A DNA stretch of 64,000 nt from an uncultured Candidatus Binatia bacterium (GTDB lineage: Bacteria > Desulfobacterota > Binatia > Bin18), in assembly GCA_965200355.1 (NCBI GenBank), contig OZ241351.1:1564163-1628162 (forward strand). The letters are read 5' to 3'. Position numbers and translations under genes: made by a program. The notes beneath the pieces were generated by a model that saw nothing but the letters and a program-made list of their open reading frames with translations, searched no databases and was not told the DNA's origin. Below, in pieces: positions 1 through 32,071 of this stretch; within the stretch, counting starts at the first letter, position 1, and each line of letters opens with the position of its first letter.

Positions 1-801
1 TCGCTGACCCGACTGGCTGGCGAGGCCATCAATAATCTGACCCCCACGGCGAATGTCGGTGGCGAAGCCATTAAAGTCTATCTCCTGCGACAACACGGCG
101 TGGCCGCCGATATTGGCACGGCCTCGGTTGTTGCGGCCAAGACGGCCCTCACCGTTTCTCAGGTGGCCTTTATTGTGCTGGGTCTGCCGTTTTTTCTATA
201 CCGTCTGGATATTGGCTATCATGCCTGGTGGATATTCGGGGCGGTTTTTGTCCTGGCCTACGGGTTTGTGATGGTCCTCGTGCGCTGGCAGCGGCGGGGG
301 CTGGTTGAAAAATGCGTCGGCTGGCTGCGGCATTGGTTTCCCGGCTGGAGCCGGTTGGCGCACTGGCAGGAACGGGCGCAACACATTGATGCACATCTTT
401 TTCATTTGTACGACGGAGACGCCTCCAATTTCATTGCGGCCAGCCTGTATCACTTTCTGGGCTGGGCGGTGGGGGCGGTGGAAGTCTATGTGTTTTTCAT
501 GCTGATGGGCGCCCCGGTCAGTTGGATGGACGCCCTCATTATTGAAACCATGATTCAACCCGTCACGGCTGCGGCCTTAATCATTCCCGGCGCGCTGGGG
601 GTGCGTGAGGCGGGTGGGGTCTTCCTCTGCCGCCTGCTCGGTATTGAGGAGAGCGCTGGTCTGACGCTGATGATTCTCAAACGGGCCCGAGAGGCGGTCT
701 ACAACCTCGTCGGCCTGCTCGTCCTGGCCCGAGCGGGGTATGCCCTCTTCCCGGAGAAAACTCCCCGCCCAGACCCGCGGCTGACCCGGCGTCCGGGCTA
801 G
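1..801 (+). CDS. Partial (5'-truncated by window) integral membrane protein, UPF0104 / lysylphosphatidylglycerol-synthase-TM-region (flippase-like) family
   Basis: Frame 1 is open from nt 1 (SLTRLAGEAINNLTPTANVGGEAIKVYLL...). Multiple hydrophobic helices; the GEAIKVYLL-type motif is typical of the LPG_synthase_TM/UPF0104 family. Stop at 799-801. Confidence 0.5.
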   Translation, partial: SLTRLAGEAINNLTPTANVGGEAIKVYLLRQHGVAADIGTASVVAAKTALTVSQVAFIVLGLPFFLYRLDIGYHAWWIFGAVFVLAYGFVMVLVRWQRRGLVEKCVGWLRHWFPGWSRLAHWQERAQHIDAHLFHLYDGDASNFIAASLYHFLGWAVGAVEVYVFFMLMGAPVSWMDALIIETMIQPVTAAALIIPGALGVREAGGVFLCRLLGIEESAGLTLMILKRAREAVYNLVGLLVLARAGYALFPEKTPRPDPRLTRRPG

Positions 802-3373
802 AACTCAAAGCCGGCTCTGAGATAGTAGAACCCGCCGTTGAAGCCGTAGGGCGAGGTTTTTGGATACTTCGCGCCGGCGATAGTCGCATAGGGATTGCGC
901 TGTGTATACTTGTCAAACAGGTTTTCCGCACCCACCGCGAGCGTCGCCGCCTCCATAAACGGCAGATTCAGGAAGGTATACGAGAGTTCCAGGTCCACGA
1001 GCCAGCGCGCCCCGCTATTGATGGGCAGGGCCAGCTCTTGCAGGTGGGCCTCGTAGAAACTGTCATAAAATGGAGCCGGCTGAGCAACCGCCACGGTCCG
1101 TAGGTGTGGTCAGCCGTCAGCGAAAAGCGAAATTCCGGCAAGTTCTCTTCCATGGTCCGCAGCAGCCACGGCGCGATGACGGCCGGATTATAGCTATCGA
1201 CGGCCATATCGTTCCAGTTGCCCACCAGCATGAACAGGGTGTTGCCGGCGACCGACGTCAACGGATAGGTGGCCACCACATCCACCCCCTGCGTGGTCAG
1301 GTCAGAGTCGTTGGTAAAGAAGTTGACTGTGCTGAAGGAGGAAGCCTCTGCCACCCCTTGGGCCAGCAACGCCTCAACATCCGCCTCTGTCAGGGCCAGC
1401 GGCGAGGTCAGCCAAATGCGGTCTTGGACCTTGATGCGGTAATAGTCCACCGTCACTTCCACCTTGCCCAGGTTGAAGACTGTGCCAATCGAATAATTGA
1501 CCGATTTTTCCGGCTCCAAGGGCTTGCCGCCCTTGACCACGGCGACCGGGTGGTCCGGCGGCAGGGTGCCTTGTTCTACTAATCTCCCCCCGATGAAATT
1601 TGTACTGACTTTGCGGAAATTGGTCTGCCCGACCGTCGGCGCGCGAAAACCCGAGCCGACCGAGCCGCGCACTGCAAAATTTTCCAGAAATTGCCAGCGC
1701 GCCGACGCCTTGCCGTTCAGCGTATCGCCGATTTTTTCATAGTCCTCATACCGGCCGGCGAGAGCGATGGTCAGGTTTTTGAACACCTCCGCTTCCAGGT
1801 CCAGATAGCCGCCGTAGCTGTTCCAGCGATGGGTGCCGGCCACACTCGGGCTGTGAAGCCTTGAAAGCCGTTGGAACCGATGCTGAATCCCTGCCGGGCT
1901 ATGCCCTCGTCGCTGAACCAGGAGTTCGGGTCGCCAGATTTGATCTCGAACTCCTCTTCCCGGTACTCCAGCCCGAAGGCCAAGTGCAAGGCCGAATAGA
2001 ACAGTCCGACATCGAACGGCCGAGAGATGTCGAAGTTAAACGTCTTGTCAAACTCCCGGTAGCCGCCAGGCTCATACGAGGTCGGAACATTCATCCGCAT
2101 GGCAACCAGATTCGGATTGACGGTATTGTGCATGAAAAAGGACGCAGTGTGATGTCCAAACGAGGCGCTGACGTCATAGGACCAGCCATCGAGCAGCCTC
2201 AGGCCGGTGCTGGAGAGTTCGCCGCGGAGCCCAAAGGCGATACTCCAGTCCTCAACAACCCCACCGAAACGGGGTGTGAACCCGCCCGGAAACCGCTCGT
2301 TGAAAGCCCAGCAGTGCTCGGGCAAGGCCGCCAACGCCTGGTCGTAGTTCGCCGCCGGGTTTTGGAAGACGGTCGGCCGGCCGTCTTCCTCAGGCCCCTG
2401 AAATACGCTGCCACGGGTGTTGGGATTGCGGTAGAAGAAGCCACCCTCGACCTTGCGCTCGGCATAATTGCCAAAGGCGTACAGCCGGCTGTTGATCTCC
2501 TCCAAGTCCAAGCCGAGGTTGCCGAAGAATTTGTAGTCGTATTGCACCTCTGGCGCGCCCCAAATCTGGGCCGCCGGCCGCCGCACGTGTTCGTTCCCGG
2601 CCTCAATCAGCCCGCGCGCATCGCTGCGTTGCACGCTGCGGCTGGTCTCGTCGGCATTCAGAAACTCGAAGCTGAAGTTGGCAAAGCCGTGCTCGGTCAG
2701 GGGCACGCCCAGATTGGCGGCCACTTGCACCTTGTCGCCGTCTCCGTGGTAGTTCTGGCCATAGCTGGTCTGGACGCTCAGCCCCTCGGTGTCTTCGCGC
2801 AGCTTGAAGTTCATCACGCCGGCAATGGCGTCCGAGCCATATTGAGCCGCGGCCCCGTCGCGCAGCACCTCAACTTGCTCCAGGGCAATGGCGGGAATCA
2901 CGGAAACGTCTGGAGCCTAAGAACCGTCCGAGACCCCACCTCCCAGAAAGGTAATCACCGAGGCGCGGTGGCGGCGTTTGCCGTTGACCAACACGAGGGT
3001 AGAGTCCGACGGCAGCCCGCGTAGCGTGGCTGGCCGCACGAGCGTCGCCGCGTCGCTGATGGGTTGTTGGTTGACGTTATAAGACGGCACGGTGGCCGAC
3101 AGCAGGGAGTCCATATCCCGAATGCCGTAGGTCTGTAAGTCTTCGCTCTGAATGACATCCACCGGCACCAGTGAATCCTGGGCCGAACGACCCGCCACCC
3201 GAGAGCCGATGACCCGGAGTTCTTCAAGACCAAGGACCTGTTCCTGTTGTCCGGGCTTGGGCTTCGGCCGGCTCTGGTGCCGCCGTCTCTTGCGCGCCAA
3301 TCCCCAGGGCGCTGGTAAGGATGAACACCCCCGCGAAAAGATACGACTGCCACCACTGACACTGCCTCATATT
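798..3373 (-). pseudogene. Degraded TonB-dependent outer-membrane receptor (upstream paralog of the 3483..6131 gene), broken into >=4 frame fragments
   Basis: ORF fragments 798..1094, 968..1843, 1771..2901, 2917..3300 and the signal-peptide piece MRQCQWWQSYLFAGVFILTSALG (3224..3412, a third frame) together tile a TonB receptor: plug domain, beta-barrel, C-terminal ...YYLRAGFEF. They sit in different frames, so there are several frameshifts. A 150-aa stretch is identical to the intact copy. Confidence 0.7.
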
Positions 3374-3482: not shown

Positions 3483-6131
3483 TTAGAACTCGAAGCCGGC
3501 CCGCAGATAGTAGAACCCGCCGTTGAAGCCGTAGGGCGAGGTTTCCGGGTATTTCAGGCCGGCACCAGCCGCTTGCGGGTTCCTGCGCGGGTACTGATCA
3601 AAGATGTTTTCCGCGCCAAAGGCGACGGTCGCCGCCTGCATAAACGGCAGGTTCAGGAAGGTGTACGAGAGTTCCATATCGACCAGAAAGCGCTCGCCGG
3701 CATTAAAGCCGAAGCTGCCGTCGGTCGGGTAGTCGCGGAAACGGTCGTAGAAATACAACCGGGACAGGAAGCGCCACGGCCCCCAGTTGTGGTCGGCTGT
3801 CAGCGAGAACCGGAACTGCGGCAGGCCCTCTTCGATTTGCCGTACCAGCTTATCACTGATGAACTCTGGGGTGCGGCTGTCCACTTCGGTCTTATTCCAG
3901 TTGCCGACGAGCGTGAACTGCGTAAAGCCAGCCACCGATTGCAGCGGGTAGCTCGCTACCACGTCGATGCCCTGGGTGGTGGTGTCGAAGTCGTTGGTGT
4001 AGAAGCGGAGCACCGATATCTGGTTCGGCCCGACCACGGCGTCGAATTCTGCCCGGCTGATGCCCCGCTTGGCGAGTTCGTCGGCCACATTAAAGCGGCT
4101 GCTGCGAACGATGCGGTCCTGCATCTTGATACGATAATAATCGACGGTGACATCGACATCGGCCACGTTGAAGACAAGGCCGGCCGAATAGTTGACAGAT
4201 TTTTCTGGCGTCAAATCGCTGGCGCCGAAGAAGACCGAAGCCGGATGGTAGGCCGGAAAGGTGGCGTCGTCCACTAACAGGCCGTCTGAAAACGACGTCG
4301 TAATTTTGTTCACATTGGCTTGGCCGGGTGTGGGGGCGCGGAAGCCCGAGCTGACCGCTCCGCGCACGGCCAGCATCTCCACCGCCTGCCAGCGGGCCGA
4401 CACCTTCCCGTTGACGGACTCGCCGATTGGATCGTCAAAGTTCTCATACCGGCCGGCCACGCCCAGGGTCAGGGACCGAATCACTTCGGCCTCCAGGTCC
4501 ATATACAGGGCGTAATTCTTCCGCTCATAGTCACCGACGATATTGGGTCCGAATCCGGTAAACCCGTTCGAGCCAACGCCCAGCCCCTGCGGCCCGAAGC
4601 GGTCGAAGTCGGCATACCAGGAGTTTTCGCCCCCGAGTTTCACCTCATATTCTTCAATGTGATACTCGAAGCCGAACGCCATGTTCAGGTCGGAGTAGAG
4701 GAGGCTGCCGAGGTCCACGGGCCGGGAGATGTCCAGATTGAACGTCTTTTCGGTTTGGGAGACACCGCCCGGTCGGTACTCGGTTGGGATGGCGGTCCGC
4801 ATATCGGCCAACTGCGGGTTGATGGTGTTGAGCATGAAATAGTCCACGCTGTTCTCGCCGAAGTAGGCGCTCACATCGTAATACCAGCCGTTGAGCAGGG
4901 CGGAGGCGCTTTCCAGGGTTCCGGTCAGGCCAAAGGCGATGCTCCAGTCCTGCACGTAGCCGCCGAAGCGGGGAGTAAAACCGCCGGGAAAGCGCTCGAT
5001 GAACGAAAAGCAGTCCGGGCCGTTATCGGCAACTTCTCCAAATTGGGGCACGTTGCCGCGGAGAGGAATATCGCGACAGCCGCCCGACCTGCCGTCGGGC
5101 GACAGGTCAATCACCTTGACGGTGGGGGTGCCGTCTTCCAGCGAGTCGCCCCTGAAGACCCCCCCACGGGTATGAGGATTACGGAAATAGAAGCCACCCT
5201 CGACCTTGCGCTCGGCATAATTGCCAAAGGCGTACAGCCGGCTGTTGATCTCCTCCAAGTCCAAGCCGAGGTTGCCGAAGAATTTGTAGTCGTATTGCAC
5301 CTCTGGCGCGCCCCAAATCTGGGCCGCCGGCCGCCGCACGTGTTCGTTCCCGGCCTCAATCAGCCCGCGCGCATCGCTGCGTTGCACGCTGCGGCTGGTC
5401 TCGTCGGCATTCAGAAACTCGAAGCTGAAGTTGGCAAAGCCGTGCTCGGTCAGGGGCACGCCCAGATTGGCGGCCACTTGCACCTTGTCGCCGTCTCCGT
5501 GGTAGTTCTGGCCATAGCTGGTCTGGACGCTCAGCCCCTCGGTGTCTTCGCGCAGCTTGAAGTTCATCACGCCGGCAATGGCGTCCGAGCCATATTGAGC
5601 CGCGGCCCCGTCGCGCAGCACCTCAACCCGCTCCAGGGCAATGGACGGGATCGTGGAAATGTCGGCCCCCTGCGCTCCCCTGGAGTTCGGAGACCCCAGG
5701 AAATTGATCACCGACCCACGGTGGCGGCGTTTGCCGTTGACCAGCACCAGGGTGGAGTCCGGCGGCAACCCGCGTAGCGTGGCTGGTCGCACGAAGGTGG
5801 ACTCGTCGCTGATGGGTTCCTGGCCGACATTATAAGACGGCACGGTGGCCGACAGCAGGGAGTCCATGTCCCGAATGCCGTAGGTCTGCAAGTCTTCGCC
5901 CTGAATAACATCCACCGGCGCCGGCGAATCCTGGGCCGAACGACCCGCCACACGGGAGCCGACCACGCGTAGGTCGCCCAAGTCTATGATATCTGTTGAT
6001 GCCGCCGCCTCCGTCTCTTGAGCCGCGGCTGGTTCTTGCTGGTTCGTGTCTTGCGCTTCAGCCGCAGAGACACCCATCACGGTCAACACACTCACCAAAA
6101 GGCCGACCTGCCACCACTTCAGCTTTCTCAT
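3483..6131 (-). CDS. TonB-dependent outer-membrane receptor (882 aa), intact
   Basis: N-terminal signal peptide (MRKLKWWQVGLLVSVLTVMGVSAAEA). Plug motifs (DLQTYGIRDMDSLL, TLVLVNGKRR). Long barrel region. C-terminal aromatic ...LRAGFEF. Strong SD GAAGGAGG 8 nt upstream of the ATG at 6131. Confidence 0.9.
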   Translation of the reverse strand: MRKLKWWQVGLLVSVLTVMGVSAAEAQDTNQQEPAAAQETEAAASTDIIDLGDLRVVGSRVAGRSAQDSPAPVDVIQGEDLQTYGIRDMDSLLSATVPSYNVGQEPISDESTFVRPATLRGLPPDSTLVLVNGKRRHRGSVINFLGSPNSRGAQGADISTIPSIALERVEVLRDGAAAQYGSDAIAGVMNFKLREDTEGLSVQTSYGQNYHGDGDKVQVAANLGVPLTEHGFANFSFEFLNADETSRSVQRSDARGLIEAGNEHVRRPAAQIWGAPEVQYDYKFFGNLGLDLEEINSRLYAFGNYAERKVEGGFYFRNPHTRGGVFRGDSLEDGTPTVKVIDLSPDGRSGGCRDIPLRGNVPQFGEVADNGPDCFSFIERFPGGFTPRFGGYVQDWSIAFGLTGTLESASALLNGWYYDVSAYFGENSVDYFMLNTINPQLADMRTAIPTEYRPGGVSQTEKTFNLDISRPVDLGSLLYSDLNMAFGFEYHIEEYEVKLGGENSWYADFDRFGPQGLGVGSNGFTGFGPNIVGDYERKNYALYMDLEAEVIRSLTLGVAGRYENFDDPIGESVNGKVSARWQAVEMLAVRGAVSSGFRAPTPGQANVNKITTSFSDGLLVDDATFPAYHPASVFFGASDLTPEKSVNYSAGLVFNVADVDVTVDYYRIKMQDRIVRSSRFNVADELAKRGISRAEFDAVVGPNQISVLRFYTNDFDTTTQGIDVVASYPLQSVAGFTQFTLVGNWNKTEVDSRTPEFISDKLVRQIEEGLPQFRFSLTADHNWGPWRFLSRLYFYDRFRDYPTDGSFGFNAGERFLVDMELSYTFLNLPFMQAATVAFGAENIFDQYPRRNPQAAGAGLKYPETSPYGFNGGFYYLRAGFEF

Positions 6132-6151
6132 CGCACTCCTCCTTCACCAGA

Positions 6152-6340
6152 AACTTCTACAAGCCTTTGCCAACTTCTACAAGCCTTTGCCAACTTCTAC
6201 AAGCCTTTGCCAACTTCTACAAGCCTTTGCCAACTTCTACAAGCCTTTGCCAACTTCTACAAGCCTTTGCCAACTTCTACAAGCCTTTGCCAACTTCTAC
6301 AAGCCTTTGCCAACTTCTACAAGCCTTTGCCAACTTCTAC
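6152..6340. repeat. Perfect 20-bp tandem direct repeat (unit CTTCTACAAGCCTTTGCCAA), ~9.5 copies, in the divergent intergenic region between the TonB receptor and hpnJ
   Basis: Counted directly: AAGCCTTTGC recurs at 6161, 6181, ... 6321 (9 times) with exact 20-bp period. The array begins ~20 nt upstream of the receptor start codon. Confidence 0.95.
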
Positions 6341-6374
6341 CTAATCCCTGGCTTTCCCTCTTGGCTGCCCATGT

Positions 6375-6400
6375 GTATAATGCCGGGCTTTATAAGGAGA
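6375..6400 (+). promoter_or_regulatory. Putative sigma70 -10 (TGTGTATAAT) and SD (AAGGAG) for hpnJ
   Basis: TATAAT preceded by TG-rich sequence about 25 nt upstream of the ATG at 6411. AAGGAGAG lies 10 nt upstream of the ATG. No good -35 hexamer. Confidence 0.3.
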
Positions 6401-6410
6401 GCAGCACGAC

Positions 6411-7853
6411 ATGCGGACATTGTTCTTGAATCCACCTGCGTATGAAAACTTCGATGGAGGCGCCGGCTCACGCTATCAGGCGACTCGGGAGGTCTGGTCG
6501 TTCTGGTACCCGACCTGGCTGTGCTATCCGGCCGGCATGATTGACAACAGCCGCGTTCTGGACGCCCCGCCCGAAGGCTTGAATCAGGCCCAGACCGTTG
6601 AAATCGCCCAAGCGTACGATTTTGTTGTGCTGCACACCAGTACCCCGTCGGTCAAACTGGATGCGCAGACCGCGGAGTTAATAAAAGAAAAGAATCCGGC
6701 CTGCCACATCGCCTTTGTGGGCGGTCAGGCCACGGCTGAGACGGAGAAGACCTTACAGATTTCTGAGGCCATTGATATCGTCGCGCGAAAAGAGTTTGAC
6801 TACTCCATGAAGGAAGTCGCTGAGGGCTGGGAGTGGAAAGATATCCGCGGCATCAGCTATCGTCAGGACGGACACATCCATCACAATCTTGACCGTCCGA
6901 CGCTGACCAATGAAGAGCTTGACCAATTGCCCTTTGTCACCCAGATTTATGATCGGGATTTGGACTTCCGCAAGTATAACAGCCCGTATTGCCAGTATCC
7001 GTATGTGTCGTTATACACCGGCCGGGGCTGTCCGGCGCGCTGTACGTTTTGTCTGTGGCCGCAGGTGACCACCGGCCATTCCTACCGCACCCGCTCGGTG
7101 GGCAATGTCATTGAGGAAGTGCAGGAAATGCAGCGCCTCTTTCCAGGGATGAAAGAAGTCTTCTTTGATGACGACACGTTTACGGCCGACCCGAAACGCG
7201 CCCGTGAGATCGCCAAAAAAATGGGCCGTCTCGGCCTGTGCTGGTCCACGAATGCCCGCGGCAATGTTGACTACGAGACCCTCAAGGTGCTGAAAGATGG
7301 CGGGCTGCGGCTGTTTGTGGTCGGCTATGAGTCGGGCAACGCTGCCATTCTCAAAAATATCAAAAAAGGCGTGGCCCTCGAAACCTCGCGGCGGTTTACG
7401 CGGGACTGCCACCAGCTTGGTATCCTGATCCACGGCACCTTTATTCTGGGCCTGCCGGGAGAAACCCGTGAGACCATGCAGGAGACCATGCGTTTCGCCC
7501 GGGAGATGAATCCAGAAACCATTCAGGTCTCCTTGGCTTCCCCCTATCCTGGCACCGCCTTCTACGATTTCGCCCTTGACAACGGCTATATCAAGGCCGA
7601 GGACATGGTGGGTGAGTCGGGCTATCAGCAGTGCGTGATTAACTATCCCAACCTGTCCGGGGAAGAAATTTTTGAAACGGTTGAGAAATTTTACCGCTCG
7701 TACTACCTCCGTCCGCGCTATATCTTCAAAGCCGTCAAAAAGATGGCGCGCGACCCGGAGGAGCGCAAACGGATGTGGCAGGAAGGCAAAGATTTTTTCC
7801 GTACCATGCGCAAACGGCGGGAGATGAACGTCTCGTCTTCTCCGGCGGTCTAG
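6411..7853 (+). CDS. hpnJ: Hopanoid-biosynthesis-associated B12-binding radical SAM protein HpnJ (cyclitol-ether/ring-contraction enzyme)
   Basis: 480 aa. N-terminal B12-binding-like domain plus radical SAM core (YTGRGCPARCTFC). The conserved C-terminal region is typical of the HpnJ family. Immediately followed by a GT2/GT21 glycosyltransferase (hpnI) and a YdjC-family gene (hpnK), the canonical hpnIJK context. Confidence 0.75.
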   Translation: MRTLFLNPPAYENFDGGAGSRYQATREVWSFWYPTWLCYPAGMIDNSRVLDAPPEGLNQAQTVEIAQAYDFVVLHTSTPSVKLDAQTAELIKEKNPACHIAFVGGQATAETEKTLQISEAIDIVARKEFDYSMKEVAEGWEWKDIRGISYRQDGHIHHNLDRPTLTNEELDQLPFVTQIYDRDLDFRKYNSPYCQYPYVSLYTGRGCPARCTFCLWPQVTTGHSYRTRSVGNVIEEVQEMQRLFPGMKEVFFDDDTFTADPKRAREIAKKMGRLGLCWSTNARGNVDYETLKVLKDGGLRLFVVGYESGNAAILKNIKKGVALETSRRFTRDCHQLGILIHGTFILGLPGETRETMQETMRFAREMNPETIQVSLASPYPGTAFYDFALDNGYIKAEDMVGESGYQQCVINYPNLSGEEIFETVEKFYRSYYLRPRYIFKAVKKMARDPEERKRMWQEGKDFFRTMRKRREMNVSSSPAV

Positions 7854-7878: not shown

Positions 7879-9108
7879 ATGGTGTCTGACTTCCATGTCC
7901 CACAAGAAGACACCTGCCCCAACGCTGGAGATTGGGAGAGGATGGGGACGTTTATTCTGCTGATCGTCTTCTGGTTCCTGGCCGGCCTGCTGTGCTGTGC
8001 CCTGGCCTATTGCCTCTTTAGTGTCTATGCGGCCTGGCGCTTTTTCCGCTCGCGTCCGACGCCTCCCACTCCCCTGCCCCCGGTCACGATGCTCAAGCCG
8101 CTCAAAGGCGCACCGCCCGACCTGTATGACAGTCTGGCAAGCTTTTGCCAGCTCGATTACCCGACTTTTCAAATCCTGTGCGGCGTCCGTGACCCCGATG
8201 ACCCGGCCGCGGCGGTTGTGACCAAAGTGCAGCACGACTTTCCCCAGTGCGATATTTCCCTGGTTGTTGCGCCGGCGGTGATTGGGACCAATTACAAGGT
8301 CAGCACCCTGCACCACCTGACCGCCCAGATGAAGTATGACTATCTGGTCATTACCGATAGTGATGTCCGGGTTGCCCCCGACTACTTGCGAACAATCATC
8401 CCCCCCTTGACCCAGCCGGAAACCGGACTGGTGACCTGTGTGTATCGCGGCGGTTCCCGCCGGCCCGTACCAGCCCTGCTGGAATCGCTGATGATTAACA
8501 CGACTTTTACCACCCAGGTCGTGGTCGCCAGCCAGGTAGAACAGCCCTCGTATGCCTTTGGCGCAACCATGGCGCTTAAACGCGCCGGCCTCGACGCGAT
8601 TGGGGGGTTTGCCCGGCTGTCTGATTATCTGGCAGACGACTATTATCTTGGATATTTCATTGCCCAGGCTGGGTATCAGATTCGCGTGCTGCCCGCTGTC
8701 GTGGAAACCCGCCCAGACGCGGGTTCGTTGCGCGAGTTGTTTACTCATCAGTTGCGTTGGGCGCGGACGCAACGCAACTGTCGGCCCGGCGGGTATATCG
8801 GGACGGTGGTGACGTTTGGCACGGTCTGGGCCGGCGTCAGCTTGGGCTGTTTTTGGGCGTCGGTCGAGATGACGGTTCTTGCCCTCAGCGTCCTCGGGCT
8901 ACGCCTGCTGAGCGCTGCTCTGATGAACGCGGTTTTTCTCCAATCGAGGCTGCCGCGGTCGGCTCTTCTGCTGACCCCACTCACCGACCTGATCTCTTTT
9001 GTGGTCTGGTGTGCCAGCTTGTGGGGCAACACGGTCCGTTGGCGGGAGTATACCTTCCGGCTCAAAAAAGATGGGCGTATGGTGCGCGTCAGTTCAGTTA
9101 AGCCCTGA
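7879..9108 (+). CDS. hpnI: Hopanoid-associated family-2/21 glycosyltransferase HpnI (N-acetylglucosaminyl transferase onto bacteriohopanetetrol)
   Basis: N-terminal TM helix. GT-A fold motifs (YLVITDSDV DxD-like, QLRWARTQ). Membrane C-terminus. The start may be the ATG at 7942, which has a GGGAGAGG SD. Gene order hpnJ-hpnI-hpnK. Confidence 0.7.
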   Translation: MVSDFHVPQEDTCPNAGDWERMGTFILLIVFWFLAGLLCCALAYCLFSVYAAWRFFRSRPTPPTPLPPVTMLKPLKGAPPDLYDSLASFCQLDYPTFQILCGVRDPDDPAAAVVTKVQHDFPQCDISLVVAPAVIGTNYKVSTLHHLTAQMKYDYLVITDSDVRVAPDYLRTIIPPLTQPETGLVTCVYRGGSRRPVPALLESLMINTTFTTQVVVASQVEQPSYAFGATMALKRAGLDAIGGFARLSDYLADDYYLGYFIAQAGYQIRVLPAVVETRPDAGSLRELFTHQLRWARTQRNCRPGGYIGTVVTFGTVWAGVSLGCFWASVEMTVLALSVLGLRLLSAALMNAVFLQSRLPRSALLLTPLTDLISFVVWCASLWGNTVRWREYTFRLKKDGRMVRVSSVKP

Positions 9109-10023
9109 TGCTTGTGTTCCCGCACGCAGCCCAGGCAGGGCGCAGTACGGCACGAGTCGAATGTCCTGTTGAACGAGCAGCTCGCGCACGGTCGGATTCG
9201 TCAGCGCGGCCAGCTCAACATCTCGGCGATAGGTCGGCGTCCAGCGTTCGACCTCGGGACACGGCCGGCCGGCCGGATGGCAGTACAGTTCCGTGACACC
9301 GGCTTGGAGGCGCGGGAACAGGCCCCGCAGATAGGGGGCATCCAGCGCGCCGCTTTGATGCAGGCCAAACAGATGGTCCGGGTAGGGGATGCCGGCCTGC
9401 CGCAGCTTTTTTGCTGTTATCCGGGCGAGGGGGGTAAAGACCACAGACTCTCCGCGTTTCCTCAATGCCTGGCGTGGGTCAATTGTCAGGCTGGTCGCCA
9501 GGTCTTCGCGGGTCAGACGCATAGCCGGGATAGGGTATTCCTGGGCGAGGGCCAGAAGAACGTCCATAACGACCGGGTGCATATGGATGTTGAGATGGCC
9601 ATCAATATGGGACAGGGGTAAGCCGGTGTTCAGAAAACGTTCAATCTGAGCACGGCACTCGACCCGGATTTCTTGCCGCGCCCGTGGGGAAAAATAATAC
9701 TGCAAGCCGGACCGGATTGGAGCCTGGCTGAAATTCCCCTGACTATCGGTGATCGCGCGTAGGTGCGGTTTGGAGAGCACCGCCCGCCCCTGGACTAAGG
9801 TCAGATGCAGGCCAACCCCGAGGCTTGGTGTTGAGCGGGCGAGGTCAACCGCTGCCTCCCAGGCCGGCGCCGTGACCATGAGGCTGGTATTGGTCAGAAT
9901 GCCCTGCTGATGGGCGTGTAATATGCCGGTATTGACCTGAGTGGACAGGCCGAAGTCGTCTCCGTTGACGATGAGATAGCGGGCGGCGGGGCCGGCCGGC
10001 TCCGCTCTTGCCTTTAGCGGCAC
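9094..10023 (-). CDS. hpnK: YdjC/ChbG-family carbohydrate deacetylase, HpnK-like (deacetylation of GlcNAc-BHT)
   Basis: LIVNGDDFGLS...NTGILHAHQQGILT N-terminus and H/D metal-binding residues are typical of the YdjC (ChbG) family. Convergent with hpnI, overlapping it by 15 nt. Confidence 0.7.
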   Translation of the reverse strand: MPLKARAEPAGPAARYLIVNGDDFGLSTQVNTGILHAHQQGILTNTSLMVTAPAWEAAVDLARSTPSLGVGLHLTLVQGRAVLSKPHLRAITDSQGNFSQAPIRSGLQYYFSPRARQEIRVECRAQIERFLNTGLPLSHIDGHLNIHMHPVVMDVLLALAQEYPIPAMRLTREDLATSLTIDPRQALRKRGESVVFTPLARITAKKLRQAGIPYPDHLFGLHQSGALDAPYLRGLFPRLQAGVTELYCHPAGRPCPEVERWTPTYRRDVELAALTNPTVRELLVQQDIRLVPYCALPGLRAGTQASGLN

Positions 10024-25515: not shown

Positions 25516-25746
25516 GCCTCTTATATACGCCGAGAAATTGCTTGTCTAATGGGGTAGGGGTGTGGACGGGGGACGGTCAACAGAGAAGGAGAAAATGTCG
25601 GGACGGTCTCAATCGGGATTGCCACCACACAGGCGAAGCGCTAGGGGAGAGGAGCGAGGGCCTGTCCCTGTCACTTTTTGCCGAAGAGTCCGCTGGACCA
25701 GGAATGTTCCGAACACAGAAAAAACCACCCAAGGGAAGGACGGCGA

Positions 25747-28700
25747 TATGGCCGACCAGAGCCAGCCGGAGGGCGCGCTCGTCCAATCTGAGAAAACGGC
25801 CGCTCGTCAGTCTTCCTTCCCGGAGCCAGGCGTTCTGATGGACCAGCGCTTCTTCCAACAGCCTGTTTTGAATTCGCCCTACGAGTATCCCAGGCAGCAC
25901 TGGGAGCTTGATGAGCAGGGACAGCCAACCCAGCGGATCATCGCAACCCGCCGCCGGGCCGAGTTTATTACGCCCATTCCAAAGCCGCGCAAACGCAAAG
26001 GCTCCGCGCACCAGCAGTCACTCGCCTTAGATGAAGGCCACGGACTCTCAACCGCTGAGCAGCAGTACGACCCGACCTCCATTATCACCGCGCTCCGTCG
26101 TCAGGTGGACCAGTGGCGCAGCCGACCGAATCCGGCCGACTGGCAGGTGACACCCGAGACCGCTCGTCTGCTGCAACACTGGAGACAGCATCAGTTCAGC
26201 ACTATCCGGCCCTTCTTCTGTCAAGTGGAAGCCGTGGAAACCGCGATCTGGCTGACCGAGGTTGCTCCGAGAGCGGGCAAGACCGGCAAGGATTTTCTGG
26301 CACATCTCACCAACGCCAATACCGACGCCAATCCGGGTTTACAGCGCGTGGCGCTCAAGCTCGCCACCGGCGCGGGCAAGACCACGGTTCTTGCCATGCT
26401 GATCGCCTGGCAGACCATCAACGCGGTCCGCCGCCCAACGAGCAGAAGATTTACCCGTGGCTTTCTGGTCGTTACGCCCGGTTTGACGATCCGTGACCGG
26501 CTGCGCGTCCTGCAACCGAACGACCCGGACAGCTATTACGCCAGCCGGGAGCTGGTGCCGGGCGATATGCGCGGCGACCTCAGCCGGGCCAAAATCGTCA
26601 TTACCAACTATCACGCCTTCAAGCGGCGTGAGCGCATGGCGCTTTCAAAAGGCGGTCGCTCGTTGCTCCAGGGGCGCGGGGCCGCCTTGAACACCTTGGA
26701 GACCGAAGGGCAGATGCTTCAGCGCGTCATGCCCGACCTGATGGGCCTGAAAAATATCGTGGTGATGAACGATGAGGCCCACCACTGCTACCGCGAGAAA
26801 CCGGAAAAAGATGACGAAGGAATACTGAAAGGCGACGAGCGAAAAGAAGCGGAGAAAAACAATGAGGCGGCGCGGCTGTGGATTTCTGGCCTGGAAGCCG
26901 TGGGCCGCACGCTGGGTCTGGCGCGGATTATCGACGTATCGGCCACACCGTTCTTTCTGCGCGGCTCGGGCTATGCCGAGGGCACGCTGTTTCCCTGGAC
27001 GATGAGCGACTTTTCCCTCATGGACGCCATCGAATGCGGAATTGTCAAGCTGCCCCGGGTGCCGGTGGCAGACAACATCCCTGGCGGCGAAATGCCGAAA
27101 TTCCGCAATCTGTGGCAACATATTCGACCCCGGATGCCGAAAAAGGGCCGGGGCAAAGCCAAGACCCTTGACCCGCTCAGCCTGCCGGTTGCACTCCAGA
27201 CCGCCCTGGACGCCCTGTACGGCCATTACCAACAGACCTCTGCGTTATGGCAGCAGAAGGGCATTCAGGTGCCGCCCTGTTTTATCGTGGTGTGCAATAA
27301 CACCTCGACCTCCAAGCTGGTGTATGACTATATCTCCGGCTTTTGGCGGGACAATGACGACGGTTCACCGACACTCGAGCATGGCCGCTTGCCGCTGTTC
27401 CGAAACCATGAGGCCGACGGGACTCAATTGGCGCGTCCGCGTACCCTCCTCATCGACAGCCAGCAACTCGAATCCGGGGCTGCCCTGGACACCAATTTTC
27501 GGGCGATGGCGTCAGATGAGATAGCACGCTTCCGCCGCGAGATTATCGAACGGACCGGCGACCATCGCCAGGCCGAAAACCTGTCTGACCAAGACCTGCT
27601 GCGGGAAGTCATGAACACGGTCGGCAAGCCGGGCCGGTTGGGCGCGTCGATTCGTTGCGTGGTGTCGGTTTCCATGCTGACCGAAGGCTGGGACGCCAAC
27701 ACGGTCACGCACGTGTTAGGCGTGCGCGCCTTTGGCACGCAATTATTGTGCGAACAGGTCATTGGGCGGGCCTTGCGCAGGCAATCCTACACGCTGAATG
27801 AGAAGGGGCTGTTGAATGTGGAATACGCCGATGTGCTGGGGATTCCGTTTGACTTTACCGCCAAGCCGGTTGTTGCTCCGCCCCAAACGCCCCGCGAGAC
27901 CGTGCAGGTTCAAGCGGTGCGGCCCGACCGCGACCATTTGGCCATTCAGTTTCCCCGGGTCGCCGGCTATCTCGTTGAACTGCCGGAGGAACGACTCAGC
28001 GTGCAGTTCAACGCCGATTCCGTTCTGGAATTGACCCCAGACCTGGTTGGCCCCTCAATGACCCGGAACGCGGACATTATTGGCGCGGATGTTGACCTGA
28101 GCCTGAAGCATCTGGACAACCTGCGTTCCTCAACCGTGGCGTTCCACGTGACCAAGCGCCTGCTCTACACCAAATGGCGCGACCCTGGCGCAGCACCGAA
28201 GCTCCACTTATTCGGGCAGTTGAAACGCATTTCGGGCAGTTGAAACGCATCACCACGCAATGGCTGGCGACCTGTCTGGTCTGCAAAGGCCGGACCTACC
28301 CCGCTCAACTCCTGTATCAGGAGCTGGCCGATATGGCCTGCGAGCGCATTACTGCTGGTATCACCCGTTCCGTCATCGGCGACCGGCCCGTAAAAGCCGT
28401 GTTGGACCCCTACAATCCCACCGGCTCGACCACGCACGTGCACTTCCATACCTCCAAAGCGCACCGCTGGCAGACGGATGCCCGGCGGTGTCATATCAAC
28501 TGGGTCATCCTCGACAGCGATTGGGAGGCCGAATTCTGCCGGGTGGTTGAGTCGCACCCCGCGGTGCGGGCCTATGTGAAAAATCACAACCTCGGCCTGG
28601 AGGTGCCCTACCGCTCCGGCTCGACCCTGCGGACCTATATTCCCGACTTTATCGTGCTGCTGAACGACGGGCATGACGACCCGTTGCATCTGATTGTTGA

Positions 28701-28885: not shown

Positions 28886-31190
28886 ATTCTTCTACGAGGC
28901 GATTGAAGGCTGTCTGTGTTCCTCCGGCAAAGCGCTTGACGGTCGGTAAGTAATAGATTATCCGCCCCTTGAGAGTACGCTGTGCTCCTCGCGATCACGA
29001 GCCGGCCGAAATCCTGGGGCTTTTTTATGCTTGCCCGCTGGACACAATTCTATGCCTCGAAAAGCGAAGAAGACGGCCAAGACGGTTGAAACTCTGCGGC
29101 ACCCCGACGCCTCGCGTAAGAACATCCCCACGGCTGAGTTTCAGGCGGTGATGCGTAAGGACGAACAGAGTCCGATTCAGGTTGCCTATGAGCGGCGCAA
29201 CCGCGACCTGGACCCGTAACTGGTGTGGCGGGGGAAGGATGAACAGGACGGGGCGGATTTGGTGGTGCAGGCTCCGCCGTTGTACATTCAGGAGAAGGTG
29301 CATCCGAAGGTGTTGATTGACGATTTGCGGCAGCGCAGCAAGGAGACCGGCGACGCGAGCGCGCAGCCGGATTTGTTCGCGGATTTTAACGGGCTGCCGA
29401 GCGCGGACGCGCAGACCGAGTTTTATCAGCACGACGCCAACTGGTCGAACCGGATGATTTTGGGCGATAGCTTGCAGGTGATGGCGTCGCTGGCCGAACG
29501 CGAGGGCCTGCGCGGCAAGGTGCAGTGCATTTACCTTGACCCGCCTTACGGCATCAAGTTCAACAGCAACTTTCAGTGGTCAACCACGAGCCGCGATGTC
29601 AAGGACGGGAAGGCAGACCACATCACGCGGGAGCCGGAGCAGGTGAAGGCGTTTCGGGATACGTGGCGGGATGGGATTCATTCGTATTTGACGTATTTGC
29701 GGGACCGGCTGACGGTGGCGCGGGATTTGTTGGCGGAGAGCGGTTCCATCTTCGTGCAGATTGGGGATGAGAATGTCCATCGGGTGCGGGCGGTGATGGA
29801 GGAAGTTTTCGGACAGGACAACCATATTGCAGATATTGTTGTCCTGAAGACAAGTAGCCAAACGTCCCAATACCTTGCTGGAATAGCTGACTATGTAGTT
29901 TGGTATGCCGTCGATAAGGAACGCTTGAAGTACCGGCAACTGAACAAATTCAAAAAGCTTGGAGAAACAGGAACAACCCAATACCTATGGGAACTATCGC
30001 TAGACTTACAGGAATCGCGGATATCTAAGGAACGGAATCCCAGAGGGCATGTGTTTGCCGCTGACAATCTCTCCAGTCAATCCGGCGGTGAAACGACTAG
30101 GTTTGAATTCACCGTATCAGGAAAGATATTTCGGGTCGCTAGAGGAGGCTGGAAGACGAACTTGCAAGGAATGAGGCGTCTGGAGAAAGCTCACAGACTC
30201 AAGCCAATTGGTAAATCCTTGATGTATCGGAGATTTTTGGACGATTTTCCAGTCTATCCTATCGCTAATGTCTGGGACGATGTCTTGGCGACAGGATTCT
30301 CTGAACAGAAGGTATATGTTGTTCAGAGTTCTCAGAAGCTAGTCCAACGCTGCGTCCTCATGACCACCGACCCCGGCGACCTCGTTCTTGACCCAACCTG
30401 CGGTTCTGGCACGACGGCCTACGTTGCTGAACAGTGGGGCCGGCGGTGGATTACGATTGATACGTCTCGCGTCGCCTTGGCCCTGGCCCGTGCCCGTATC
30501 ATGGGTGCTCGCTATCCCTACTACCTGCTCGCCGACAGCCGCGACGGCCAAATCAAAGAAGCCGCGCTGGCCCGCAAAGCTCCCTCGGAAGTGCCCATAT
30601 ACACCGACATCCGCCAAGGCTTCGTGTACGAGCGCGTCCCCCACATCACCCTCAAGGCCATCGCCAACAACGCCGAAATCGACGTAATATGGGAGAAATG
30701 GCAGGAGACGATTCAGCCGCTGCTTGAACAACTCGGAGCCATCGTCGGCGATTCGCCCCTACCGGAATGGGAAGTACCAAGAGACCTGCCGGACCCGTGG
30801 CCGCCGGAGGCTGCGCCGCTGCACGAACAATTCTGGACGGCGAGGGTGGCGCGTCAGCGCGAAATCGACGCCTCCATCGCGGCCAAAGCCGACTACGAGT
30901 ACCTCTACGACAAGCCCTACGAGGATAAGAAAAAAGTTCGGGTGGCCGGGCCGTTTACGGTCGAAAGCCTGTCTCCGCACCGGGTGTTGGGTGTCGATGA
31001 AAACGACGAACTCATCGACCGTGTAGCTGAAAGCACGGTCGGGTACGGCGAAAAGCAGGACTTCGCCGCAGTGATTCTGGAAAACCTCAAAACCGCCGGC
31101 GTGCAGCAGGCCCACAAAGACGACAAAATTACCTTCACCGCAATCACCCCCTGGCCGGGCGATTTGATCTGCGCCGAAGGCCGGTTTGAT

Positions 31191-31310
31191 AGTGGAGTAG
31201 GGGAGAAGGGAGAGTGGATAGAGGGGAAGTGGATAGTGGATAGAAGGGAAGTGGATAGTGGCGAGCAAGACAGCGAAAAACTATCCACTCTCCCCTCATC
31301 ACTATCCACT
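31191..31310. repeat. GTGGATAG-rich hairpin element (4 direct GTGGATAG copies opposed by CTATCCAC copies) lying in-frame inside mod
   Basis: GAGTGGATAGAGGGGAAGTGGATAGTGGATAGAAGGGAAGTGGATAGTG ... AACTATCCACTCTCCCCTCATCACTATCCACTG; a MITE-like inverted repeat. Confidence 0.75.
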
Positions 31311-31608: not shown

Positions 31609-32001
31609 GTGTCGGAAACAGAATTGCTCCGTATGACATCTTTACGCTCGTATCGGGACTTGACGGTTTGGCAGAAATCAATGGACTTGACGGTGAGGAT
31701 TTACGCGCTGACGCAGCGCTTTCCTGCCGACGAGAAATATGGGATTACCTCACAAATGCGGCGGGCGGCGTCCTCGATTCCGGCGAACATCGCGGAAGGG
31801 CAGGCAAGGCGCACGACGGGGGAGTTTCTTCAGTCGCTTGGCATTGCGCGGGGCTCGCTGGCAGAACTGGAGACCTTTCTGACCTTATCCGAAAGGCTGG
31901 AGTTGATCGACAAGAAGGCTTCCGAGACCTTGTTGAACGACTGCGCCGAGATAAACAGAATGCTCTACGCCCTGATGCGCTCACTAACCCCTATCCACTA
32001 A
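31609..32001 (+). CDS. Four-helix-bundle protein (TIGR02436 / 23S-rRNA-intervening-sequence protein family)
   Basis: 130 aa with YRDLTVWQKSMDLTVRIYALTQRFPADEKYGITSQMRRAASSIPANIAEGQARRTTGEFLQSLGIARGSLAELETFL, characteristic of the IVS-encoded four-helix-bundle family. It lies in a frame different from mod and is bounded by GGTTAGTGGATAGTG (31596-31610) on the left and a CTAACCCCTATCCAC tandem array on the right. Confidence 0.8.
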   Translation: MSETELLRMTSLRSYRDLTVWQKSMDLTVRIYALTQRFPADEKYGITSQMRRAASSIPANIAEGQARRTTGEFLQSLGIARGSLAELETFLTLSERLELIDKKASETLLNDCAEINRMLYALMRSLTPIH

Positions 32002-32071
32002 CCCCTATCCACTAACCCCTAACCCCTATCCACTAACCCCTATCCACTATCCACTAACCCCTATCCACTAC
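31982..32071. repeat. Tandem array (~6 copies) of the 14-15-bp unit CTAACCCCTATCCAC (reverse complement GTGGATAGGGGTTAG)
   Basis: Read directly; forms the right border of the four-helix-bundle cassette. Confidence 0.9.

Follow-up and report, generated by a model that had tools for sequence, protein, structure and literature searches.

A perfect tandem array of a 20-bp unit lies between the divergently transcribed genes for a TonB-dependent outer-membrane receptor and the hopanoid-associated protein HpnJ in an uncultured Candidatus Binatia bacterium, and we are on balance inclined to regard it as a young, lineage-specific VNTR situated in the transcribed leader of the receptor gene, where its length would alter receptor expression. 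Most likely it is an ordinary length-variable leader or promoter repeat, and neither a protein-binding array nor a special kind of promoter. The whole stretch of DNA analyzed, 64,000 nucleotides long, is referred to here as the window, and coordinates are those of the window unless a related locus is named. The array and the genes around it are arranged as follows:

3483 to 6131, minus strand: TonB-dependent outer-membrane receptor, 882 amino acids, intact, with Plug and TonB_dep_Rec_b-barrel domains (100% identical to P0001).
6132 to 6151, minus strand: 20-nt gap separating the array from the receptor ATG, containing the Shine-Dalgarno (SD) sequence GGAGGAG (the reverse complement of 6137-6143); this ribosome binding site (RBS) region is homologous in relatives.
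6152 to 6340, no strand assigned: tandem array of 9 x AACTTCTACAAGCCTTTGCC followed by AACTTCTAC, found by TRF, in the sequence itself, and by pattern search.
6341 to 6410, plus strand: hpnJ core promoter and short leader, with the block GCTTTCC.TCT, a -10 hexamer TATAAT, and the SD AAGGAGAG, all conserved in relatives.
6411 to 7853, plus strand: hpnJ, a hopanoid-associated B12-binding radical SAM protein (HpnJ profile TIGR03471).
7879 to 9108, plus strand: hpnI glycosyltransferase (gene callers place the start at 7942, giving 388 amino acids).
9094 to 10023, minus strand: hpnK, a YdjC-like deacetylase, convergent with hpnI.

The array consists of nine full units and a 9-nt partial unit, and every copy is identical. 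TRF reports a period of 20, 9.4 copies (9.45), 100% matches, 0 indels, and a score of 378, the highest in the 64-kb window (the runner-up scores 164); direct reading of the letters matches the TRF call for 6152-6340, and a pattern search across the 64 kb returns 9 exact full units where the chance expectation is 0. All three agree with the initial annotation, which had described a perfect 20-bp array of about 9.5 copies and had added that it was not CRISPR; the units are indeed contiguous, and the absence of spacers excludes a CRISPR array. Head-to-tail units of at least 10 bp with nothing between them are the structure of a VNTR or minisatellite. In the sense of the receptor gene the unit reads GGCAAAGGCTTGTAGAAGTT; the GC content of the array is about 0.47, and its plus strand is strongly richer in C than in G. 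That all copies are 100% identical implies either recent expansion or ongoing homogenization. The initial annotation had also proposed looking for the unit elsewhere in the genome: at up to 3 mismatches, no further copy lies outside the array in the 64-kb window, and none is found in the corresponding region of any of 80 related loci (0/80), which were retrieved with HpnJ from GTDB species representatives.

The array is real. The same 189-bp array, together with its flanks, is present in a separate ENA assembly contig (L001, ERZ25068762) that differs from the window by 1 mismatch and 1 gap over 5,085 nt, and short-read Logan contigs of the same strain stop exactly 30 nt into the array, the usual behavior of k-mer assemblers at repeats; the identical second assembly and the breaking of short-read contigs at the array together rule out an assembly artefact. 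The 20-mer copy number is 9.4 in both long-read assemblies, which amount to essentially one strain (n=2); short-read contigs cannot count the copies. When HpnJ, HpnI, HpnK, and the receptor were used for exact-protein look-ups, the only contigs retrieved were those of the source strain.

The genes on either side are those originally named, a TonB receptor and hpnJ, as confirmed by domain matches for the former and by a 726.7-bit match of HpnJ to TIGR03471 (cut-off 577.6) for the latter; the distances of about 20 and 70 nt given at the time are likewise borne out by the coordinates, which put 20 nt (6132-6151) between the array and the ATG of the receptor gene and 70 nt (6341-6410) between the array and that of hpnJ. 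The receptor ORF beside the array has a good SD and aligns over its full length with orthologues; its protein is on record once, in a 3.83-Mb contig, and the next nearest receptors are 90-92% identical. The initial statement that the array occupies the divergent promoter holds for the receptor side but not for the hpnJ side, where both the -10 and the upstream block fall outside the array. Specifically, the hpnJ -10 TATAAT (TGTGTATAAT), with TGTG just before it, is at 6376-6381 and the SD AAGGAGAG at 6394-6401, and since the array ends at 6340 the hpnJ core promoter lies outside it. The receptor promoter must instead lie inside or beyond the array, because the 20 nt left on that side, SD included, are too short to hold a promoter; no receptor promoter is recognizable to the right of the array.

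Directly downstream of the array-adjacent receptor, at about 801-3300 on the minus strand, the window contains a second TonB-dependent receptor paralogue split over frames -2, -1, and -3. The breaks are near 1850 and 1068 (at least 2 frameshifts), and relatives have an intact 869-aa gene; the second paralogue is probably a pseudogene.

The nearest of the related loci come from Candidatus Binatia MAGs, many of which are long-read assemblies at chromosome level; their HpnJ proteins are 93-96% identical in amino acids to that of the window. The divergent arrangement of receptor (minus strand) and hpnJ (plus strand) is kept in 17 close relatives with intergenic lengths of 105-621 nt, and the hpnJ promoter block GCTTTCCTTCTTT..(C/T)(A/G)TGTATAAT is kept in the window and in all relatives. 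Between the hpnJ promoter and the receptor RBS, most relatives share a conserved block of about 200 nt (sequences from L006-L013, L015, L019, and L033, aligned in A1 and A3, some 60-230 nt ahead of the receptor start codon), in which can be found i) an inverted repeat GAGAGAAGA...TCTTCTC with about 30 nt between the arms; ii) a -10-like hexamer, TATAGT or TATGGT (TATAAT in L019), which precedes the receptor ATG by about 60-75 nt; and iii) short palindromes just downstream of that hexamer (CCTGCACGTGCAGG in L006, CCGTGCACGG in L009). As an RNA the block folds weakly (RNAalifold, -7.06 kcal/mol with a covariation term of -0.83). The window lacks this entire block, and the array occupies its place; the lost block was possibly the receptor promoter together with an operator. 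The intergenic length of the window, 279 nt, is close to the 286-297 nt typical of relatives, a near-equality which we treat as coincidence. Also absent from the window is a GC-rich segment of about 45 nt found in the hpnJ leader of relatives, so that 6382-6410 is shortened. In one relative (L014) the receptor and hpnJ start codons are only 105 nt apart, implying that in this clade the receptor promoter can overlap the hpnJ promoter or lie beyond it. No significant single-copy progenitor of the 20-bp unit was found in relatives, the best matches (11/12 bases in L021, L026, and L006) having p values of about 0.01-0.03, uncorrected over 19 comparisons.

Two other features of this intergenic region in relatives deserve mention. 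In the GC-rich hpnJ leader segment that the window lacks (L006-L033, at about 4940-5000), a CCUUC just after the -10 can pair with GAAGG of the SD region; all five pairs (5/5) are preserved in 16/17 sequences, and the remaining sequence breaks two. The pairing may be an anti-SD element; its consensus energy is weak (-5.9 kcal/mol) and covariation is nearly nil. In L089, a gene for a Uma2-family endonuclease and a 163-aa ORF (861-2510) have been inserted between receptor and hpnJ, with a copy of the hpnJ promoter, leader, and first codons on either side of the insert.

The segment next to the receptor RBS has also been duplicated in tandem in other lineages, each time with a different unit. Sister lineages carry a 13-bp unit, TGCATGTTATATC, repeated in tandem between the likely receptor -10 and the SD/RBS. 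In one sister species, represented by five genomes whose hpnJ genes are at least 98.9% identical in nucleotide sequence, the number of 13-bp copies differs from genome to genome:

L094: 3.6 copies.
L093: 4.6 copies.
L018: 4.6 copies.
L088: 4.8 copies.
L087: 5.9 copies.

A single metagenome, ERZ25067264, is the source of three of these genomes (L087, L088, and L094). In species further removed (L012, L017, L095, and L089), the 13-bp unit is present in about three degenerate copies, and L007 has, at 4667-4760 and immediately upstream of the receptor start, a tandem duplication of about 37 nt (CAGAATTTTTTCTCTACCTA..GTACAC x 2) that includes the RBS-proximal leader. Variation from 3.6 to 5.9 copies within the sister species marks the site beside the receptor RBS as a recurrent tandem-repeat hotspot. 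The RBS-adjacent segment has thus undergone at least 3 independent expansions in the clade, and in the sister species it shows true VNTR behavior. No expansion at this site is more extreme than the array in the window: across about 0.87 Mb of related loci, none of the arrays reported by TRF combines 5 or more copies with an identity of 95% or higher. Recurrent duplication at one site can, of course, reflect a mutational hotspot without selection.

Elsewhere in the clade, about 5.5 kb downstream of hpnJ, pyrimidine-rich 13-bp arrays (CTCTATCGCCCCT and variants) of 2.8-4.5 copies are present in L020 (10543-10578), L021 (10442-10477), and L026 (10586-10644), which suggests that intergenic DNA in this clade commonly carries short arrays.

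We can now be more explicit about how a leader repeat of this kind might arise and act. Replication slippage or unequal recombination would have built the 20-bp array in the leader or promoter region of the receptor gene, at a site prone to tandem duplication throughout this Binatia clade, and the array takes the place of the roughly 200-nt block that holds the likely receptor promoter in relatives. The receptor promoter is accordingly placed, in this proposal, beyond the array, so that transcription would start near or within the hpnJ promoter region, cross the array, and endow the receptor mRNA with a repetitive 5′ leader of about 190 nt; each 20-nt unit gained or lost would then alter the length of the leader and, through a length-dependent cis effect, receptor expression. 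The hpnJ core promoter would not be re-spaced by such changes, and any influence of the array on hpnJ would have to be exerted through sequence context at least about 36 nt upstream of the -10. We infer that the array is transcribed as leader because the receptor promoter must be inside or beyond it, because the arrays of sister lineages lie downstream of a likely -10, and because the L014 gap is so short. Array length probably tunes receptor expression, although it could be neutral. Among the three readings offered in the initial annotation (binding sites for a regulator, a copy-number-variable tract that tunes expression, and repeated sigma-54-like elements), it is the second that seems to fit best, on the basis of the 13-bp variation in the sister species.

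The main alternative is that the array arose as a neutral by-product of regulatory decay, in which the ancestral promoter block was lost and a meaningless 20-bp duplication then slipped under relaxed selection; the array would have no regulatory role, and the receptor locus might itself be heading to inactivation. We regard this as possible, if less likely. The adjacent downstream receptor paralogue (about 801-3300, minus strand) does have at least 2 frameshifts where relatives have an intact gene of 869 aa; the window lacks both the upstream block of ~200 nt and the ~45 nt of hpnJ leader; no promoter-like site is recognizable in or beside the array; and the source contig, at 3.83 Mb, compares with 3.6-6.0 Mb in related chromosome-level records. 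Yet the receptor next to the array is intact, with 882 aa, a good SD, and full-length alignment to its orthologues; the independent origin of arrays at this position in sister lineages is at least consistent with selection on the site; and expression would probably be affected by any 189 nt placed between promoter and RBS.

Having the receptor promoter within or beyond the array, with 20 nt left before the ATG, would also be expected if each 20-bp unit were itself a weak receptor promoter and copy number set promoter dosage, for which the promoter tandem repeats of M. tuberculosis are a precedent (PMC12817950). The minus strand does offer TTGGCA (5/6 to the -35 consensus) and TTGTAG-N17-TAGAAG, which at 7/12 is the best sigma-70 candidate that could be found by hand in the array; TAGAAG, however, lacks the final T, and a scan of both strands for the sigma-70 consensus (-35/-10 spacing of 16-18 nt, at least 9/12 matches, T at position 6 of the -10) finds no site in or beside the array within 5900-6700. 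The arrays of sister species, moreover, are downstream of the likely -10 and thus in the leader. Nor does sigma-54 help. The initial annotation had seen TGGCAAA-N4-TTGTA on the minus strand, a miscount by one: a T followed by GGCAAAGGCTTGTAGAAGTT gives TGGCAAA-GGC-TTGTA, hence TGGCAAA-N3-TTGTA, with a spacing of GG-N9-GT where sigma-54 needs GG-N10-GC. With as many as 2 mismatches allowed, TGGCAC-N5-TTGCW matches 21 times in the window and 0 times in 6152-6340, and on both the spacing and the missing consensus match we reject a sigma-54 promoter and, with it, the idea of repeated sigma-54-like elements. That the units serve as tandem promoters of any kind seems to us improbable.

More improbable still is an array of regulator-binding sites resembling iterons or operators, the first of the original readings, in which a protein coating the nine phased sites would regulate either or both of the flanking genes. 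Its attractions are the length of the unit, since 20 bp is within the size range of iterons and operators, and the location of the array in a divergent control region. Against it, i) the unit has no inverted-repeat (dyad) symmetry; ii) no Rep, partition, or regulator/transcription-factor gene is present within about 15 kb, where the neighbors are the receptor paralogue, the hopanoid genes hpnJ, hpnI, and hpnK, other lipid genes, and genes for a nucleotidyltransferase, an aminotransferase, a TPP enzyme, an MMPL transporter, MlaC, and MlaA; iii) DnaA boxes are not enriched (3 matches vs 1.75 expected, the sole nearby one being the reverse complement of the hpnJ -10); iv) the unit has no second location in the 64-kb window and is missing at this locus from all related genomes, in which both flanking genes are kept; v) perfect identity of the copies points to recent expansion rather than to maintained sites; and vi) 20 bp is 1.9 helical turns, so that successive sites turn by about -34 degrees and leave one face of the helix. 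An iteron or origin is accordingly rejected, since neither a rep gene nor an AT-rich element accompanies the array and DnaA boxes are not in excess, and so is an operator array, with neither dyad symmetry nor other copies in the 64-kb window or the 80 related loci.

Several further candidates were considered and set aside. A structured RNA, whether riboswitch or leader, is rejected for lack of any Rfam family (no match at E <=1 in 5800-6800, with 7 related loci likewise giving nothing at the gathering threshold) and of a significant fold: the receptor-sense leader folds with -81.7 kcal/mol, for a z of -1.84 against shuffles that is not significant, and the hpnJ-sense RNA of the array is essentially unstructured (z +4.27). 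A coding repeat is excluded on the plus strand, where the ORFs over the array (5996-6445 among them) run into both the N-terminal end of the receptor gene and the beginning of hpnJ, and on the minus strand because the TAG of the unit hits all reading frames within 60 nt (three units). Nor does the array appear to derive from a mobile element or phage, the unit having no match in IMG/VR and a single match in JGI metagenomes, located inside an unrelated AT-rich coding sequence and attributable to chance.

TonB-dependent outer-membrane receptors are typical targets of phages, colicins, or immunity, and in Neisseria and Haemophilus some of them are phase variable, as with the poly-C tract in the fetA promoter and the CCAA repeats of hgp genes; such tracts have units of 1-4 nt, lie between -35 and -10 or inside the ORF, and act as on/off switches. 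The Binatia array resembles these in pairing a gene for a TonB-dependent receptor with a slippage-prone repeat, but its unit is 20 nt long and upstream of the RBS, which would give graded effects, and its host is an uncultured environmental or symbiotic Binatia rather than a host-adapted pathogen. Plasmid and chromosomal iterons are similar in having several direct repeats of about 17-22 bp; unlike iterons, the copies here are strictly contiguous and identical, occupy a chromosomal, syntenic intergenic locus, and have no adjacent rep gene, AT-rich unwinding element, or DnaA-box cluster. With the VNTR and minisatellite loci used in MLVA the array shares head-to-tail units of at least 10 bp, high identity, an intergenic location, and the property of breaking short-read assemblies; it is the same kind of locus as a generic VNTR, the sole extra being its position at the receptor RBS, at a site that expands recurrently.

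Closest in logic to the leader reading that we prefer are the hmw1A and hmw2A genes of H. influenzae, where a 7-bp repeat, (ATCTTTC)n, is transcribed in the 5′-UTR and changes length by slippage, and where a longer tract lowers expression in a manner that needs a long RNase III-cleaved hairpin formed by the repeats and a G-rich arm (PMC12721329). As in hmw1A/hmw2A, a perfect tandem repeat would, on this reading, lie between the promoter and the start codon of a gene for an outer-membrane or surface protein; the unit is, however, 20 bp and not 7 bp, and as the array RNA has no significant fold (z -1.84), an hmw-like hairpin mechanism is not indicated. We infer by analogy that the hmw type of transcribed-leader logic may apply to the Binatia array. 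The second useful comparison is with the promoter tandem repeats (PTRs) of M. tuberculosis, whose copy number changes at 1e-2 to 1e-3 per chromosome, which vary within and between strains, and which are proposed to tune promoter strength (PMC12817950). Both are longer-unit repeats of promoter regions seen only in long-read assemblies, and the 13-bp array of the sister species likewise varies within a species; PTRs, however, duplicate recognizable promoter elements, whereas the 20-bp unit contains no consensus promoter.

Contingency-locus repeats lie in the promoter, 5′-UTR, or ORF of a surface or uptake gene and are defined by reversible, high-frequency changes of length that alter expression; the array, directly upstream of the SD of a TonB-dependent receptor gene, has the position expected of such a repeat and would be a candidate for the class. 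One might go further and propose that the receptor leader is a true contingency locus in uncultured Binatia, in which lineages have repeatedly evolved different arrays at one position (20 bp x 9.4 in the window, 13 bp x 3.6-5.9 in a sister species, and the 37-bp duplication in L007) under selection that may have favored rapid, heritable tuning of the receptor, for instance in response to phage or colicin pressure or to a fluctuating substrate. We advance this proposal tentatively and consider it doubtful; if true, phase or rheostat variation mediated by repeats would reach beyond host-adapted pathogens, into an environmental or symbiotic phylum known from metagenomes only. Should array length tune the receptor, as our preferred reading holds, the locus would illustrate how repeats can vary gene expression in Binatia, which are known here from MAGs alone, as well as convergent repeat evolution at one regulatory site; should it prove neutral, it would be just a young VNTR within a remodeled intergenic region. 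In the literature searched, no paper mentions Binatia and hopanoids together. What the present comparison adds is the finding of different arrays at a single TonB-dependent-receptor regulatory site across Binatia lineages, together with a within-species copy-number polymorphism that is visible in long-read MAGs. The locus is usable as a strain-typing marker for these populations, and it is a reminder that short-read assemblies break at such arrays and hide them.

Other repeats are present elsewhere in the window. Two heptamer tandem arrays, mutually inverted, are found at 31188-31261 (GGATAGTG-type) and 31982-32070 (complement CACTAACCCCTATC x 6.4), where they flank a plus-strand ORF (31609-32001, 130 aa) encoding a 23S rRNA intervening-sequence/four-helix-bundle protein (PF05635, 1.9e-40). 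The heptamer-array unit sits in the 3′ part of an N6/N4 DNA methylase frame (29223-) beside a ResIII helicase gene (25562-28243), and the arrays and PF05635 ORF together look like an element inserted into a restriction-modification locus. Finally, a perfect 20-bp duplication (TTCGGGCAGTTGAAACGCAT x 2.0) is present at 28211-28250, at the 3′ end of the ResIII helicase ORF, where ORFs overlap.
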